A stretch of DNA of 64,000 nt from Candidatus Omnitrophota bacterium (GTDB lineage Bacteria > Omnitrophota > Gorgyraeia > Pluralincolimonadales > Pluralincolimonadaceae), in the NCBI GenBank assembly GCA_903889135.1, contig CAISWF010000170.1:1638-65637 (forward strand), written 5' to 3'. The position numbers were made by a program, and so were the translations under genes. The notes under the pieces were generated by a model. The model was not told where the DNA came from. It saw only the letters and a program-made list of their open reading frames with translations, and did no database searches. Shown one piece after another: positions 9,856 to 62,541 of the stretch; the first letter of the stretch is position 1, and every line of letters begins with the position of its first letter.

Positions 9856-10719
9856 TTATTTCATCGCTTCCTTGGTATTCTTTACGAACGGCTCAAGCAG
9901 GTTCATGAATTCCATCGGGAAGATATATTTCGTCGACGGGCTCTGTCCCAAAGCTTTCAGCGTCTCAAGGTACTGGAGCGAAAGCGTTTTCGCGTCGACG
10001 TTCTTGGCTACAGAGAATATCCTATCTAACGCCAGCGAAAAACCCTCAGCCCTTAGTATTGCCGCCTGCCTGTCGCCCTCAGCCTTCAATATTGCCGACT
10101 GCTTCTCGCCCTCGGCTACCGTTATGGCCGCGGCTTTTGTACCTTCCGCCTCGATGATCACGGCGCGACGGGTCCTTTCGGCGGACATCTGCCTGATCAT
10201 GGCGTCGGATACGTCCTTGGGCGGCAGGATCTCGCGGATCTCGACGGTAGTTACCTTAACGCCCCAGCGCTCGGTGACATCGTCAAGTTTTTGGCGGAGG
10301 ACCGTGTTTATCTGCTCGCGTTTTGAAAGGACTTCATCAAGCCCTAAGTCGCCGACTACGGCTCTCAGGGTGGTCGTAGCGATACCCTGCGACGCTGCCG
10401 CGAAATTGCCTACCTGTATGATGCTCTTGTCCGGGTCGATGACCTTCCAGTAGATAAGGAAATCTATCGATATCGGCGCGTTGTCTTTCGTGATGCACGT
10501 CTGTTGGGGTATCTCAAGGAACAACTCCCTTAAGTCCACGTTCAGAGCCTGGTCTAGTATAGGGATAAGGAATACTATTCCCGGGCCCCTCTGGCCGATA
10601 GAGCGGCCGAGGCGGAAGACTACAAGGCGCTTGTATTCCCTGACGATCCTTATCGAGTTCGAAAGTACTATTATCCCGACTACCAGTAAAAAGAATATGA
10701 TCATTCCGCTAATAGCCAT
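9856..10719 (-). CDS. SPFH/band-7 (stomatin-like) protein
   Basis: An N-terminal TM is followed by an SPFH domain (RIVREYKRLVVFRLGR...TKDNAPISIDFLIYWKVIDP) and a coiled-coil EAEG/KAEG region. Confidence 0.85.
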   Translation of the reverse strand: MAISGMIIFFLLVVGIIVLSNSIRIVREYKRLVVFRLGRSIGQRGPGIVFLIPILDQALNVDLRELFLEIPQQTCITKDNAPISIDFLIYWKVIDPDKSIIQVGNFAAASQGIATTTLRAVVGDLGLDEVLSKREQINTVLRQKLDDVTERWGVKVTTVEIREILPPKDVSDAMIRQMSAERTRRAVIIEAEGTKAAAITVAEGEKQSAILKAEGDRQAAILRAEGFSLALDRIFSVAKNVDAKTLSLQYLETLKALGQSPSTKYIFPMEFMNLLEPFVKNTKEAMK

Positions 10720-57347: not shown

Positions 57348-58373
57348 ATGGCTATCCAGACGATCAGATGGGACAAGGGCGCGATAAAGATAATAGACCA
57401 GACCCTGCTCCCGAATAAGCTCGTATACCTGAAGTTCCGCGACGTAAAGGATTTCTGGCACGCGATAAAAAAATTGCAGGTGCGCGGAGCGCCGGCCCTG
57501 GGCGTGGCCGCCGCCTACGGGGCTTACCTGGGGATCCAGAGATCGAGGGCCAAAGATTATAACGGATTTATCCGCGAACTGGACCGTGTCATAAAATTCA
57601 TCGGCTCGGCGAGGCCGACCGCGGTGAATCTTTTCTGGGGCCTCGACAGGATCCGCGCCGCCGCCGTGAAAAATAAGAAAAAACCTGTCCCGGAGATAAA
57701 GAAAGCGCTGCTTTCCGAGGCGCACAAAATTTACGAAGAGGACAGGGCGATATGCAGGAAGATGGCCGGGTACGGTGCGCGGCTCATTAAAAACGGCGAT
57801 GTCATATTGACGCACTGCAACGCCGGAGCGCTCGCGACGGCCGATTACGGCACCGCGCTCGGCGTAATTTACATGGCTAAGGAACAGGGCAAGCGCGTAA
57901 AGGTATATGCCGATGAGACACGGCCTCTTTTGCAGGGCGCTCGCCTTACCACCTGGGAGTTGATGCGCGAAGGTATAGATGTGACGCTCATCTGCGATAA
58001 TATGGCCGCCCATGTCATGAGCCTGGGCAAGGTGACGAAAGTCATCGTAGGCGCGGACAGGATAACGCGTAACGGCGACGCGGCGAACAAGATAGGCACT
58101 TACGGCGTCGCGGTCCTGGCGAAATACCACAAGATACCTTTTTATGTAGTCGCGCCGGTCTCGACGATAGATTTCAACCTGCCATACGGCAGGTTGATCC
58201 CGATCGAAGAGAGGCATGGAGACGAGATCACGACTATCCGCGGGAATCTCCTCGCCCCGAAAGGGGTAAAGACGTATTGCCCGGCTTTCGACGTAACGCC
58301 GGCGGCGCTAATCACCGCGATAGTCACGGAAAAAGGGATTTTTAAACCTGATGAAATTAAAAAAATTAGGTGA
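57348..58373 (+). CDS. mtnA: S-methyl-5-thioribose-1-phosphate isomerase (eIF-2B alpha/beta/delta-like)
   Basis: IIDQTLLP, RGAPALGVAAAYG and TRPLLQGARLTTWEL are present. Confidence 0.8.
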   Translation: MAIQTIRWDKGAIKIIDQTLLPNKLVYLKFRDVKDFWHAIKKLQVRGAPALGVAAAYGAYLGIQRSRAKDYNGFIRELDRVIKFIGSARPTAVNLFWGLDRIRAAAVKNKKKPVPEIKKALLSEAHKIYEEDRAICRKMAGYGARLIKNGDVILTHCNAGALATADYGTALGVIYMAKEQGKRVKVYADETRPLLQGARLTTWELMREGIDVTLICDNMAAHVMSLGKVTKVIVGADRITRNGDAANKIGTYGVAVLAKYHKIPFYVVAPVSTIDFNLPYGRLIPIEERHGDEITTIRGNLLAPKGVKTYCPAFDVTPAALITAIVTEKGIFKPDEIKKIR

Positions 58374-59265
58374 GACAGGGCTCATAGAGCGGCTCGCGAG
58401 GAATTTTAAGGCGGGCAAAGATATCGTCCGGGGCATCGGCGACGATTGCGCCGTGATACGCATATCGAAGAAAAAATACCTGCTCGTCACGATCGACATG
58501 CTCCTTGAGGATGTCGATTTTAAGTTAAAGGACGCGACGGCTTTCCAGATCGGCTGGAAGTCGCTCGCCTGCGGGTTAAGCGATATCGCCTCAATGGGCG
58601 GCACTGCGAAATACGCGGTCGCCTCTTTAGGGCTCCCGAAAAAGCTGAGCGTCGAATTTGTAGATGAGATATACCGCGGGATAAAGGCTCTTGCCAAAAG
58701 ATTCGACGTCGAGATAGTCGGCGGCGATACGAATTCTTCCCGCAAACTCGTCATAGATGTCGCTGTCCTCGGGTTCGTAGAGCCAGATAAAGCCGCGTTC
58801 AGGAGCGGCGCGAGGCCCGGCGATATAATTTGCGTAACAGGCGCGCTCGGCGGCTCATATAAAAGCAAGAGGCATCTTGTTTTTACGCCGCGCCTTAAAG
58901 AAGCCCGGTACCTGGTAAATAATTTCAAGATAACCTCGATGATAGATATTTCTGACGGGCTTTCGACCGAATTAAACCATATCGCGAAGGCGAGCGGGGT
59001 AGGCGCCTGTGTATACGAGGAACTGATACCGGTCGCAAAGGGCGCCAGGGGCGTGAACGCGGCGTTGAATGAAGGCGAGGATTTTGAGCTGTTATTCACG
59101 ATGCCGCTGGACGAGGCCCGCAGGCTCGCCCGGAAGAACATGGAATTGAACGGCGTGAGAATATCTCAGATCGGCGAGATACTCGATAAAAAGATCGGCG
59201 TGAAGATAATAGCTCCTAACGGAACGACGAAAGAACTGAAGCCAAAAGGATTTTCTCATTTTTAA
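58351..59265 (+). CDS. thiL: Thiamine-monophosphate kinase
   Basis: The AIR-synthase-related fold shows GIGDDCAVI and the DxxDGL region (MIDISDGLSTEL). Confidence 0.8.
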   Translation: MKLKKLGETGLIERLARNFKAGKDIVRGIGDDCAVIRISKKKYLLVTIDMLLEDVDFKLKDATAFQIGWKSLACGLSDIASMGGTAKYAVASLGLPKKLSVEFVDEIYRGIKALAKRFDVEIVGGDTNSSRKLVIDVAVLGFVEPDKAAFRSGARPGDIICVTGALGGSYKSKRHLVFTPRLKEARYLVNNFKITSMIDISDGLSTELNHIAKASGVGACVYEELIPVAKGARGVNAALNEGEDFELLFTMPLDEARRLARKNMELNGVRISQIGEILDKKIGVKIIAPNGTTKELKPKGFSHF

Positions 59266-59685
59266 ATGACATTCACGACAGCGAACGCTGAAGAGACGAT
59301 AAAATTAGGGGAGAAGATAGCCAGGCGGTTAAAGCCCGGCGACCTCGTCGCGCTCTCAGGCGAACTGGGCGCGGGCAAGACCACCCTCGTCAAGGGTATA
59401 GCCAAGGGCCTCGGCGTAAAGAATTACAGGTACGTCAACAGCCCGTCATTCGTCCTCGTCAAAGAATATAAAGGGAAGATCCCGCTCTTCCATTTCGATA
59501 TCTACCGGCTCAACAATTTAAAGGACATCGAGGATATCGGCTATGAGGATTACCTCGCACGCGACGGCGTTGTCGTCATCGAATGGTCGGGTAAGATGGC
59601 GCGCATACTGCCGAAGAAGCGTTTAAATGTCGCTTTGAAGATAAAAAGTCCCGGCAAGCGGACGATCGCCATAAAGGAATCATGA
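59266..59685 (+). CDS. tsaE: tRNA t6A biosynthesis protein TsaE (YjeE)
   Basis: The P-loop GELGAGKTTLVKG, HFDIYRL and the length of 139 aa fit TsaE. Confidence 0.85.
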   Translation: MTFTTANAEETIKLGEKIARRLKPGDLVALSGELGAGKTTLVKGIAKGLGVKNYRYVNSPSFVLVKEYKGKIPLFHFDIYRLNNLKDIEDIGYEDYLARDGVVVIEWSGKMARILPKKRLNVALKIKSPGKRTIAIKES

Positions 59686-60368
59686 AAATACTTGCGTTAG
59701 ACACCACATCAAAATATCTCTCTCTCGCGATAACCGAGGGCGATAAGGTCATAGCGACTTTCCACAGAGTGATGGACCAGCGGCAGTGCGAACAGCTTTT
59801 GCCGCAGATAGACAAACTCCTGAAAAAGGCCAATCTGAAGTTAAAAAATATAGACTGCATTGCGTTCTCAAAAGGTCCGGGGTCGCTGACCGCACTACGC
59901 ATCGGCGCGGCGACGGTGAAAGGGTTTGCGCTCGGGGCAAAGATAAAAATTGTCGGGATACCGACGCTCGACGCGCTCGCGTATAATATAAAAGAAGAAG
60001 GTAAGCTGATAGTTCCGGTCATCGACGCGCGCCGCGGCAACGTTTACGCATCGGCATATTCCTTCAAAAAAGGGAAGCTGCGCCGGATCTTAAAATACTC
60101 GGTCGCTCCTGTCGCCGAATTGCTGAAGTCGGTCAAGGGCGACGCAGTCTTTTTGGGCGACGGGCTGGTAGCTTACAGGAAAACGATCGAGGATAATTTT
60201 AAGTTTAATGCCGGGTTCGCCCCGGAGAAGCTCTGGTATCCCAGCGCGGCGACAGTCGCACGTCTCGGTCATGTGCTGGCAAAAAACAAAAAATTTGAAG
60301 AGGTAGATAAATTTGTCCCGATGTATTTATATCCGAAAGATGTCCAAGTAAGGAACCTTATAAAATGA
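59682..60368 (+). CDS. tsaB: tRNA t6A biosynthesis protein TsaB (YeaZ)
   Basis: MKILALDTTSKYLSLAI and GPGSLTALRIG are present. The gene overlaps the tsaE stop and the alr start. Confidence 0.8.
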   Translation: MKILALDTTSKYLSLAITEGDKVIATFHRVMDQRQCEQLLPQIDKLLKKANLKLKNIDCIAFSKGPGSLTALRIGAATVKGFALGAKIKIVGIPTLDALAYNIKEEGKLIVPVIDARRGNVYASAYSFKKGKLRRILKYSVAPVAELLKSVKGDAVFLGDGLVAYRKTIEDNFKFNAGFAPEKLWYPSAATVARLGHVLAKNKKFEEVDKFVPMYLYPKDVQVRNLIK

Positions 60369-61591
60369 GCCCTGTAAACGCGCGCAAGATAGTTCCTAGC
60401 CCTGCAAAAGGCAGGACAAGCCCTGCGAAAAGCAGGACTAGCCCTGCAAAAGGCAGGACAAGCCCTGCGAAAAGCAGGACAAGCAGGCCGACATGGACAG
60501 AGATAGACCTCGACGCCATCGCCCATAATTATCACGCGATAAAGGCGCGCCTCACGAAAGACACGAATATCCTCGCCGTCGTGAAGGCGAACGCGTACGG
60601 TTACGGGATGATAGAGGTCGCGCGCCGGCTGCAAAAAGAGAGGGTCCCGTACTTGGGGGTAGCGTGTGTCGACGAAGGCGTTATACTCCGACGCTCAGGG
60701 GTACGCACCCCGATACTCGTCCTTTCGTCGGTCCTTCCGGAAGAAGCGGAGTCCGCGCTCTATTATGACCTGACGCTTACCGTATGCGATAAGATCCTCG
60801 CCGCGGCCATAGACAAAGCGGCGCGCAGCCTCAGGAAACACGCGCTCATCCATGTGAAAGTCGATACAGGCATGGGCAGGCTGGGTGTGTGGCATGAAGA
60901 GGCCGGCCGCCTTATTAAAGACCTCATGAGTTTCAAGAATATAGCTATCGAAGGGATATTTACGCATTTCGCGAGCGCGGACGAGGAGGATGTCCGCTAT
61001 ACCGCCGCCCAGATAGAGAATTTTAAGCGGCTCGCCACCGAGATGGAGATAAGCGGCATCGAGATACAGTATGTGCACGCTGCGAACTCTGCCGGCGCTA
61101 TGCTGTATAAAGATTCCCACTTCAATATGGTGCGGCCGGGGCTTATGCTTTACGGCCTCTACCCGAACAAGCATCTGGTGAGAGCCGTGAAGTTAAAACC
61201 GGCCCTTGCGCTTAAGACGAGGATTATATATCTCAAGAAGACGCCGCCGGGCAGGTTTATCAGCTATGGCAGGACGCACATGACGGACAGGGAGACGGTT
61301 ATCGCCACGCTCCCGATAGGGTATGCCGACGGGCTCAACCGGCACCTCTCGAACAAGGGGGAAGTGCTCGTGCGCGGATGGCGCGCGCCGATAGTCGGAC
61401 GCATCTGCATGGACCACACGATGGTAGACGTCGGAGGGATAAAAGGCGCGAAGGTCGGCGATGAGGTCACAATTATCGGGTCCCAAAAAGGCGAGACTAT
61501 CACCGTAGAGGATATAGCCGAGCTTCTCGATACCATCCCTTACGAAGTAGTCTGCTGGATATCAGCCAGGGTGCCGCGCGTTTATAAATAA
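60365..61591 (+). CDS. alr: Alanine racemase with an unusual N-terminal basic SPAK(G/S)RT-repeat extension
   Basis: The PLP motif AVVKANAYGYG, YGL(Y)P and the C-terminal beta domain are present. No in-frame ATG, GTG or TTG occurs between the repeat and the catalytic domain, so the repeats appear to be translated. Confidence 0.85.
   Translation: MSPVNARKIVPSPAKGRTSPAKSRTSPAKGRTSPAKSRTSRPTWTEIDLDAIAHNYHAIKARLTKDTNILAVVKANAYGYGMIEVARRLQKERVPYLGVACVDEGVILRRSGVRTPILVLSSVLPEEAESALYYDLTLTVCDKILAAAIDKAARSLRKHALIHVKVDTGMGRLGVWHEEAGRLIKDLMSFKNIAIEGIFTHFASADEEDVRYTAAQIENFKRLATEMEISGIEIQYVHAANSAGAMLYKDSHFNMVRPGLMLYGLYPNKHLVRAVKLKPALALKTRIIYLKKTPPGRFISYGRTHMTDRETVIATLPIGYADGLNRHLSNKGEVLVRGWRAPIVGRICMDHTMVDVGGIKGAKVGDEVTIIGSQKGETITVEDIAELLDTIPYEVVCWISARVPRVYK
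60398..60481 (+). repeat. Tandem in-frame repeat, 4 x 21 nt (two alternating variants, giving 2 x 42 nt), encoding SPAKGRT/SPAKSRT
   Basis: The units agccctgcaaaaggcaggaca and agccctgcgaaaagcaggac(t/a) are read directly from the sequence. Confidence 0.9.
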
Positions 61592-61614: not shown

Positions 61615-62541
61615 ATGGAAAATACCGCAGTTTCCGATCTTATCCCCGAGGTGCGTATCCGACGGCAATCCGTCTATTATTATATAGCCATGATCTTATG
61701 GCCGGCCTATCTTTTCTTGCTTCCAGCGGTATTTATGCGCATCGGCTGGTGGGTGATCTTTTATTTGATCTTCCCCGGGCTGTACCTTTTTACCTGGGTG
61801 GGGTACCTTATGCATGAAAGCTGGCATAAATATGTCCCGAACGTGGATAGTCATTTTTTCTATAATATCTTTGCGCTCATGATCCTGTCGGATCCTCAGC
61901 TTTACCATATGAGCCATGGATCGCATCATGCGCAAGTGAATACGTATGACGACGCGGAATTCCATCCGCTGGGAGAGGTCAGATCAAGGGGCATGCGGAT
62001 AATATATCACTGGCTGGAAGTCGTGTTCGGGGTCGCTTTCTTGTTCGCGGCGGCCAGCCTGACGGTACCCCGGGACCCGCGTTTTGCCAAAAGATACCGG
62101 TTTTGGAAACTACCCTTATCGGTTTTATCGTGGGTGATCTTTTTTGTCGGTCTTGGATATCTGTCCCATCTTGTTTTTGGCGCCGCCTTGCGGCAAGTGT
62201 TCCTGTTATATTTCCTGAGTTTCTGGCTCGGTTCATTTTTCCTGCATCAATCGCAGCTTATAGAGCACGGGAACCTGATCGTTGAAGGGACATTTCAACA
62301 GCGCAATGTCCGGACGCGGAACTTGAAGCCGGCCGGGATGGCGGAAAAGGTTTTCCTGTTCTTGACGCACGGCGATTCGCGCGAACATGTCCTGCATCAT
62401 ACGTTGACGGCCGTCTATACCCGTCCGTTCCCGGGGACGGTTCCTTTGCCGGAAGGGACGGTATCGATCACTATGGGTGATTATTGCCAGCTTTTATGGC
62501 GCATGTTGGTCGGGAAAGTAGATAAAGAGCAATTTCGGTGA
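61615..62541 (+). CDS. Fatty acid desaturase-family integral membrane protein
   Basis: Three His boxes (HESWH, HGSHH, HVLHH) are spaced as in membrane desaturases/hydroxylases, with 4 TM helices. Confidence 0.6.
   Translation: MENTAVSDLIPEVRIRRQSVYYYIAMILWPAYLFLLPAVFMRIGWWVIFYLIFPGLYLFTWVGYLMHESWHKYVPNVDSHFFYNIFALMILSDPQLYHMSHGSHHAQVNTYDDAEFHPLGEVRSRGMRIIYHWLEVVFGVAFLFAAASLTVPRDPRFAKRYRFWKLPLSVLSWVIFFVGLGYLSHLVFGAALRQVFLLYFLSFWLGSFFLHQSQLIEHGNLIVEGTFQQRNVRTRNLKPAGMAEKVFLFLTHGDSREHVLHHTLTAVYTRPFPGTVPLPEGTVSITMGDYCQLLWRMLVGKVDKEQFR

Follow-up and report, generated by a model that had tools for sequence, protein, structure and literature searches.

We analyzed a stretch of DNA of 64,000 nucleotides (nt) from a Candidatus Omnitrophota bacterium (GenBank assembly GCA_903889135.1, contig CAISWF010000170.1, positions 1,638 to 65,637 of the forward strand), hereafter termed the window, in which the alanine racemase gene alr carries a tandem repeat between its start codon and the conserved enzyme fold. 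All positions are those of the window unless a contig is named. We regard the array as a hypermutable in-frame coding minisatellite, i.e., a variable-number tandem repeat (VNTR), in the alr leader, giving the enzyme a translated, dispensable, disordered and probably near-neutral tail, and estimate the probability of this reading at about 65%. The array is a coding VNTR: its copies lie head to tail beyond chance expectation, the copy number is polymorphic between identical haplotypes, and the reading frame is kept. The SPAK(G/S)RT peptide that it encodes appears, from comparison of the sequences, to be a by-product of palindromic DNA rather than a selected DNA-binding motif.

An earlier note on this DNA had described an in-frame 4x21-nt repeat in alr encoding SPAKGRT and SPAKSRT in alternation, and this was borne out. 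Tandem Repeats Finder (TRF) placed the array at 60398-60484 with a period of 21 nt in 4.1 copies (87% matches, score 139) and, for the same array, a period of 42 nt in 2.1 copies (97% matches, score 171); no other repeat in the 64 kb was stronger. The 21-mer AGCCCTGCAAAAGGCAGGACA matched four times within three mismatches, at 60398, 60419, 60440 and 60461. No further copy with up to three mismatches was found in the window, and 100 dinucleotide-preserving shuffles gave no match. The four head-to-tail units span 60398-60481 and lie in frame between the ATG at 60365 and the conserved RPTW, with the N-terminus of Alr reading MSPVNARKIVP-SPAKGRT-SPAKSRT-SPAKGRT-SPAKSRT-SRPTWTEIDL. The leader and the units are as follows.

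60368..60397, + strand: leader codons 2-11 (SPVNARKIVP), by sequence comparison the likely founder copy of the repeat unit.
60398..60418, + strand: unit 1, G type, AGCCCTGCAAAAGGCAGGACA, encoding SPAKGRT; palindrome core at 60401-60415.
60419..60439, + strand: unit 2, S type ending in ACT, AGCCCTGCGAAAAGCAGGACT, encoding SPAKSRT; palindrome core at 60422-60436.
60440..60460, + strand: unit 3, G type, identical to unit 1; palindrome core at 60443-60457.
60461..60481, + strand: unit 4, S type, AGCCCTGCGAAAAGCAGGACA, encoding SPAKSRT; palindrome core at 60464-60478; the same 21 nt occur in contigs L002 and L036.

The 97% identity of the 42-nt period indicates that the G+S block was the last to be duplicated. 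The extension over canonical Alr amounts to about 35 residues, 28 of them repeat, and over the nearest repeat-free relatives (380 aa) it is exactly 28 residues (4 x 7). The earlier figure of about 45 extra residues was too high: the Pfam match begins at residue 47, yet solved Alr chains align from residue 40-41, where their own residue 5-8 is placed.

The closest proteins were alanine racemases of Candidatus Omnitrophota metagenome-assembled genomes (MAGs). Nearly all of the 120 best homologs have 5-25 residues before the conserved RPTW. Relatives of 75-86% identity mostly carry a 12-residue leader, MSxxxxxKxxTS, and are 380 aa in total, and some relatives (370 aa) begin directly at MSRPTW. 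The 90%-identity cluster of the window protein contains lengths of 380, 390, 392, 394, 397, 401, and 408 aa. No tail expansions were found in the sibling 90% clusters, whose full-length members are 370-381 aa long, with a single protein of 388 aa (P0009). A comparison of alr N-termini and copy number in relatives, as the earlier note had proposed, was run and revealed alleles with 0, 2, 3, and 4 units as well as 30-nt variants. These are listed here with the identity of the Alr body to that of the window.

0 units: P0135, 99.5%.
0 units: P0131 and P0132, 93%.
0 units: P0130 and P0124, 90%.
2 units (G, S): P0128, 100%.
2 units (G, S): P0134, 99.5%.
3 units (G, G', S): P0126, read on 15 contigs, 100%.
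4 units (G, S, G, S): the window, reference.
One 10-residue (30-nt) unit, SPVLPRKYGT: P0129, 91%.
SPVLPWKGRT followed by SPAKSRT (30+21 nt): P0001, 90%.
SPAKSRT twice, with a shortened leader: P0125, 90%.

Contigs with two units (L033 and L034), three units (L030 and L031) and four units (the window and L001) were compared and found to be 100% identical in the flanks, over 593 nt upstream and 1090 nt downstream (1683 nt). Identical flanks around 2, 3, and 4 units mean that the copy number changes faster than point substitutions accumulate, and they substantiate the earlier proposal that slippage could alter the copy number without breaking the frame. The 368-residue body had no indels in 15 relatives (77-100% identity), with tails of 12-40 residues. 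All length differences within the clade were multiples of three (+21, +24, +30, +36, +42, +51, +63, and +84 nt). The units measure 21 and 30 nt, and every allele translates to full-length Alr.

Copy number is also known to vary at tandem-repeat loci of Mycobacterium tuberculosis (PMC12817950). The alr array resembles bacterial in-frame coding VNTRs in having head-to-tail units of a length divisible by three, in varying between otherwise identical genomes and in changing length without loss of frame, and slippage or unequal recombination is the mechanism in both cases. Unlike these, it is located at the extreme N-terminus of a cytosolic housekeeping enzyme dependent on pyridoxal phosphate (PLP) and not in a surface or PE/PPE-type protein, its unit is palindromic and derived from the gene's own leader, and the host is an uncultured Omnitrophota bacterium.

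The 0-copy contig L032 (ERZ27313183 k141_264406) was found to be a mosaic, its tsaB being 86% and its alr 99.4% identical to the window. The switch is located at the repeat site (locus positions ~600-612), between leader codon 11 and the Trp codon. The contig is either a recombinant or a chimeric assembly, and recombination at the repeat site is plausible.

It is very improbable that the tail is unreal, with translation beginning at a non-canonical start downstream of the repeat or with copy numbers that are assembly artefacts. Tandem repeats are known to cause assembly errors, three scaffolds are gapped within the array, and the 370-aa relatives mentioned above begin at MSRPTW. Against this, the identical 408-aa product was found on four contigs, including one of 125.7 kb and a separate 5.5-kb scaffold, with identical regional DNA. 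Two assemblies contain the 4-unit allele, whose units 2 and 4 differ (ACT versus ACA) and thereby break the symmetry of the array. The alleles with two and three units come from contigs labelled k141; if, as the label suggests, these were built from 141-nt words, each word would cover the entire array together with flanks. Moreover, a typical read of 150 nt is longer than the 84-nt array. Assembly artefact, which the earlier note had named as a possible refutation, is therefore unlikely as the main explanation.

The gapped scaffolds (L037-L039, locus 1272-1371) come from three samples and contain a 100-N gap inside the array. The gap edges, ...GCGAA and GGCAGGACAAGCCCTGCGAAAAGC..., were found to match exactly the prefix and suffix that the 3-unit allele shares with the 2- and 4-unit alleles. 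The 4-unit allele by itself holds no exact repeat longer than 43 nt. This suggests that the gaps arose from an assembly-graph bubble formed by two alleles in one sample, and because the points of divergence between the 3-unit and the 2/4-unit alleles coincide with the gap edges, mixed alleles probably occur within samples. In a separate scaffold of 2.5 kb (L040), the first 50 nt (1-50) are unrelated to the window and then join inside alr at ...CATCGCCCATAAT; this junction is probably a misjoin.

The codon listing of the window revealed no in-frame ATG, GTG or TTG between 60365 and RPTW. Alternative starts were likewise absent in the relatives compared, apart from L006, whose codon 6 is a GTG but precedes the insert of that contig. 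Together with the restriction of all length variants to multiples of three, this makes it almost certain that the tail is translated. The steps of 9, 24, and 30 nt are also in frame, which slippage of 21-nt units would not guarantee, and this again argues that Alr can be made only by translation through the array. The conserved ATGA overlap likewise speaks against a start downstream of the repeat. The extension is thus almost certainly translated from the tsaB-coupled ATG, as judged from the gene structure, in agreement with the earlier note, which had found no start between the repeat and the domain and considered translation probable. Peptides expected from the tail include IVPSPAK, TSPAK, and TSRPTWTEIDLDAIAHNYHAIK. 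An AlphaFold2 model made with a 49-sequence alignment had a mean predicted local distance difference test (pLDDT) score of 84 and a predicted template-modelling (pTM) score of 0.81. The pLDDT was below 50 for residues 1-37, a confident fold began at approximately residue 41, and the first strand comprised residues 44-47. The tail is accordingly predicted to be disordered, hanging off the first strand of the Alr fold.

The internal anatomy of the unit and its derivation from the leader go beyond the account of the earlier note. Each unit contains the palindrome CCTGC-N5-GCAGG, and the four sites compare to 0.05 expected by chance. In the 30-nt form of the unit found in relatives the core is a 24-nt palindrome, CCCGTACTTCCA followed by CGGAAGTACGGG in L035 and CCTGTCCTTCCA followed by TGGAAGGGCAGG in L002. 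Both 24-mers have 11 of 12 complementary pairs, and four of the five differences between them make up two compensated pairs. Read codon by codon, the peptides that they specify, PVLP|RKYG and PVLP|WKGR, are reverse complements (Pro opposite Gly, Arg or Trp, Leu opposite Lys, and Val opposite Tyr). Since the peptide mirrors the DNA palindrome codon for codon, the peptide is dictated by the DNA and not the DNA by the peptide.

The 30-nt insert of L035 was compared to codons 2-11 of repeat-free leaders and matched those of L007 at 22 and L004 at 20 of 30 positions (p<5e-5). It matched its own leader at 17 of 30 (p<=0.00025, shuffles) and the window leader at 16 of 30 positions (p<=0.002, shuffles). 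The 21-nt units also align to leaders above chance; when the window leader was set against shuffled leaders, the G unit gave p=0.0005. This similarity indicates that the unit is a diverged tandem copy of alr's own leader. The leader of L007 is itself palindromic at 10 of 12 pairs, and other leaders at 3-5 of 12. The G' unit of the 3-copy allele equals the 30-nt unit of L002 without its 9-nt tip, CCTTCCATG, at 20 of 21 positions.

From these comparisons the following history may be proposed. The 30-nt leader of the clade (codons 2-11, S-P-x6-G/x-T/x) would first have been tandemly duplicated. The second copy would then have become a near-perfect 24-nt palindrome, the likeliest route being intrastrand template switching between imperfect inverted-repeat arms, a process reported to homogenise and enlarge the arms (PMC13100816; PMC7202029). 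Deletion of the 9-nt palindrome tip would have left the 21-nt unit, and replication slippage or unequal recombination would have made the array grow and shrink, the 42-nt G+S duplication being the last such event in the window. Each unit would add seven basic disordered residues, translated from the tsaB-coupled ATG and not needed by the enzyme. Tolerance of the tail would follow from the free N-terminus and from length changes that are always divisible by three. A separate 24-nt insert was observed at the same site in L006 (1501-1572; P0009, 78% body identity), encoding SPSTRLGT and running AGC CCC ... GGG ACA; since it shares the unit boundaries, the leader may have been duplicated more than once in the clade.

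The case resembles quasipalindrome template-switch mutagenesis (PMC7202029; PMC13100816) in that inverted repeats were perfected and lengthened and that apparently compensatory changes are clustered (L035, L002, L007). It differs in that quasipalindrome mutagenesis was shown experimentally in E. coli and yeast, whereas the history of alr is drawn from comparative sequence and its products are filtered by the frame. The heptads of the RNA polymerase II C-terminal domain (CTD; bioRxiv 10.1101/712588) are likewise encoded by a repeat of 21 nt (7 residues) that shrinks and grows within an essential gene; however, the CTD repeats are essential and functionally defined, whereas no role is known for the dispensable Alr tail.

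A palindromic unit with AGC on both sides that is present in one lineage and absent from a close one could also be a small mobile element, similar to the repetitive extragenic palindromic (REP) sequences or the Rickettsia palindromic elements (RPEs), which inserted in frame into alr. RPEs are 100-150 bp long, dispersed and multi-copy, and add in-frame segments to housekeeping proteins without destroying them. The alr unit shares with them the addition of an in-frame peptide by palindromic DNA, but it is 21-30 nt long, confined to one locus and locally derived. A dispersed element was rejected: beyond the array no copy was present in the 64 kb, and scans of the collections gave no related loci. 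For the tandem two-unit pattern the scan of genome contigs returned one unrelated gammaproteobacterial locus and the metagenome scan returned nothing; the single-unit scan returned 20 unrelated sites, none near alr. The homology of the unit to the adjacent leader speaks for a local origin, and the mobile-element explanation is largely refuted and extremely improbable. The gammaproteobacterial locus (MAG contig CAWBKN010000016.1, L009 3760-3795) contains two tandem CCTGC-N5-GCAGG units (CCTGCTCAACGCAGGACAAGCCCTGCCCGCAGCAGG) that fit 25 of the 25 specified pattern bases. They are located at the 5' end of a KamA/EpmB-like open reading frame (ORF) divergent from efp, with a rough chance expectation well below 1.

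Several observations weigh against the near-neutral reading. Alleles with the repeat have been kept in three or more sub-lineages that are about 13% apart in the DNA of the alr body. The S unit is identical at 21 of 21 positions in the window, L002 and L036, whereas the adjacent leaders are only about 63% identical. Every unit variant stays basic, with +1 to +2 per unit. Compensated changes in the palindrome would also be expected from selection for a hairpin. All data stem from short-read metagenome assemblies, some of which may share read sets, the translation of the tail is deduced from gene structure, and we infer its near-neutrality. The identity of the S unit was first considered a sign of strong constraint and was then downgraded to mildly unusual, because the window and L002 agree just as fully in 82 of 1070 stretches of 21 nt within the alr body and because L002 and L036 are sister lineages (95% identity). 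At most it hints weakly at constraint or at spread by recombination.

One alternative takes the nucleic acid itself as the functional entity. CCTGC-N5-GCAGG hairpins recur every 21 nt, or two helical turns, and their copy number could act as a rheostat, either through mRNA structure tuning tsaB-alr coupling, elongation or stability, or as an operator array for a dimeric regulator. The excess of perfect sites over chance and the compensated arms in L035, L002 and the leader of L007 fit such a role, and the array region folds better than dinucleotide shuffles (z = -3.9). However, the native leader folded no more strongly than its synonymous recodings (z = -0.36, 0.01, and 0.23 for 4, 3, and 2 copies; for L035, z = -1.6). 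The computed opening energy at positions -18 to +12 around the ATG was 7.9-8.4 kcal/mol for 0-6 units, i.e., the accessibility of the ribosome site does not depend on copy number. No match better than E=0.2 was found in Rfam at the array, nor was a promoter-like or terminator-like site found there, and within the window the palindromic site is confined to the array. In many relatives the leader is not palindromic (3-5 of 12 pairs) and an array is absent, and template switching by itself accounts for the compensated arms. A function of an mRNA hairpin is therefore unsupported, the synonymous-recoding control being negative and the ribosome site unaffected, and a role of the nucleic acid in general is quite improbable. 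The array does not qualify as a structured cis-regulatory RNA, since no structure beyond that of the coding sequence was predicted and no known family was matched. Nor would it count as a phase-variable contingency locus, since in-frame units allow no frameshift switch, no promoter-like site was found at the array and the predicted energy at the ribosome site does not depend on copy number.

The other alternative is a basic disordered tail with a role in the protein that scales with copy number, its polymorphism being kept by selection. Such a tail might bind nucleic acid weakly through its charge, or anionic membrane lipids, which would place Alr close to the machinery for cell-wall precursors; it might also alter solubility or turnover. 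The net positive charge of all unit variants, their common start with SP, the persistence of repeat alleles in several sub-lineages with the 3-copy allele on 15 contigs, and the shared S unit are in agreement with such a role. The positive charge is, however, automatic from purine-rich AAG/AGG arms opposite CCT/CTT arms. The tail is entirely absent from close strains, and siblings with a 93-99.5% identical body that lack it show that it is dispensable. The peptide is fully changed in relatives (SPVLPWKGRT and SPVLPRKYGT, with AK replaced by VLPWK or VLPRKY) and mirrors the DNA palindrome. We consider a role of the protein tail unlikely.

The earlier analogy to SPKK motifs, histone tails and AT-hooks did not hold. 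The SPK(K/R) motif has been defined for sperm histones H1 and H2B (PMC9903204), with which the Alr tail shares N-terminal, basic and short Ser-Pro repeats in a disordered tail. Whereas the SPKK motif reads S/T-P-K/R-K/R, the units read S-P-A-K, in which SP is followed by Ala and only one basic residue, and variants read S-P-V-L. The AT-hook core R-G-R-P is absent, with K-G-R-T-S-P in its place, and no match was obtained to the Pfam AT-hook model, which is too short to be sensitive. The host protein is an enzyme, and the motif varies in its closest relatives and follows the DNA palindrome.

A word-indexed search with the N-terminal 63 residues returned a single Alr fragment. When the 35-residue repeat was searched exhaustively, 37 proteins were obtained, all of them unrelated and of low complexity with heptad repeats; they had no Pfam domain in common, and no other Alr was among them. 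A conserved peptide module was rejected on the basis of these searches. No Alr outside the cluster of the window was found to have such a tail among the 120 listed homologs, the sibling clusters and the repeat-peptide matches, and no other basic low-complexity tail was found in real genes among the ORFs of the 64-kb window. A literature search on N-terminal extensions of Alr gave nothing relevant. One protein outside the Alr family, the 240-aa serine resolvase P0191 (Resolvase and HTH_7 domains), ends in four copies of SPAKGRS followed by SSAKSRS, nearly the same heptad as in the Alr tail; such tails thus occur on DNA-binding proteins, which counts in favor of a protein role.

It is decidedly doubtful that selection maintains the array as a "length dial" of the population for an essential cell-wall enzyme, with hairpin units keeping the locus hypermutable. 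If so, the number of basic heptads would tune where or for how long Alr acts, e.g., via association with the anionic membrane or the nucleoid or via turnover, and fluctuating selection would preserve mixed subpopulations with 0-4 copies. A housekeeping gene of an uncultured phylum would then show a graded counterpart of phase variation that stays in frame.

Under the coding VNTR reading, the locus presents the natural birth and length change of a disordered tail, with alleles in related populations that match each proposed stage. The set of intermediate alleles is unusually complete, and the host gene is unusual for a bacterial coding VNTR. Neither a new enzyme function nor a new DNA-binding module is revealed. 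The array can be used as a VNTR strain marker for this Omnitrophota population in metagenomes, and the Alr lengths and N-termini in MAG annotations of the clade depend on how the repeat was assembled.

The array is embedded in the following genes and signals.

59682..60368, + strand: tsaB (TsaD/TsaB family), ORF and upstream neighbour of alr; Pfam PF00814, E=1.1e-31.
60350..60355, + strand: Shine-Dalgarno-like AAGGAA within the tsaB coding sequence, read from the sequence, 10-15 nt 5' of the alr ATG.
60365..60368, + strand: ATGA overlap of the alr ATG and the tsaB TGA.
60365..61591, + strand: alr ORF, 408 aa including the repeat tail; Pfam and PDB match 4y2w.
60482..60496, + strand: SRPTW (AGC AGG CCG ACA TGG), conserved entry to the Alr fold, from the 120 listed homologs and the solved-chain alignment.
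60485..61588, + strand: Alr catalytic body, 368 residues from R41.

The alr product is an alanine racemase, a fold-type III PLP enzyme with both the N-barrel and the C-domain at full length. Ala_racemase_N (PF01168, E=3.2e-73) covers residues 47-267 and positions 1-220 of the 220 in the model, and Ala_racemase_C (PF00842, E=5.7e-50) covers residues 281-407 of the 408. The product matched the solved Alr 4y2w with E=1.9e-102 over query residues 40-407. The PLP-lysine motif AVVKANAYGYG was present, with K74, A77, Y78, G79, and G81 invariant in 49 aligned homologs.

We infer AAGGAA to be the ribosome site of alr; relatives keep GT(A/G)AGG at its position. tsaE precedes tsaB, and the order tsaE-tsaB-alr is the same in every relative with a recovered tsaB-alr junction. 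The 4-nt overlap was called in every one of these as well, which confirms the coupling of alr to tsaB via ATGA described earlier. The two genes belong to a tightly packed run at 57348-61591 consisting of mtnA-like (IF-2B), thiL-like (AIRS), tsaE, tsaB and alr, with a 23-nt overlap at 58351-58373, abutting genes at 59265/59266 and ATGA at 59682 and 60365.

A second repeat in the window, 33 nt in 2.2 copies at 10043-10113, lies in an ORF of 287 aa on the - strand (9856-10719) and gives rise to internal repeats of the AEGxxQxAIL type. It looks like an ordinary protein-internal repeat and not a VNTR. The ORF, which was not checked against Pfam, presumably encodes an SPFH/band-7 (stomatin-like) protein.

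Downstream of alr the gene content differs among close relatives (window 61615-62541; L002, L004, L006, L007, L035, and L036). A fatty-acid-desaturase-like gene 3' of alr is confined to the lineage of the window, and L002 has a phage-type integrase approximately 1 kb downstream of alr. The downstream neighbourhood of alr looks recombination-prone.

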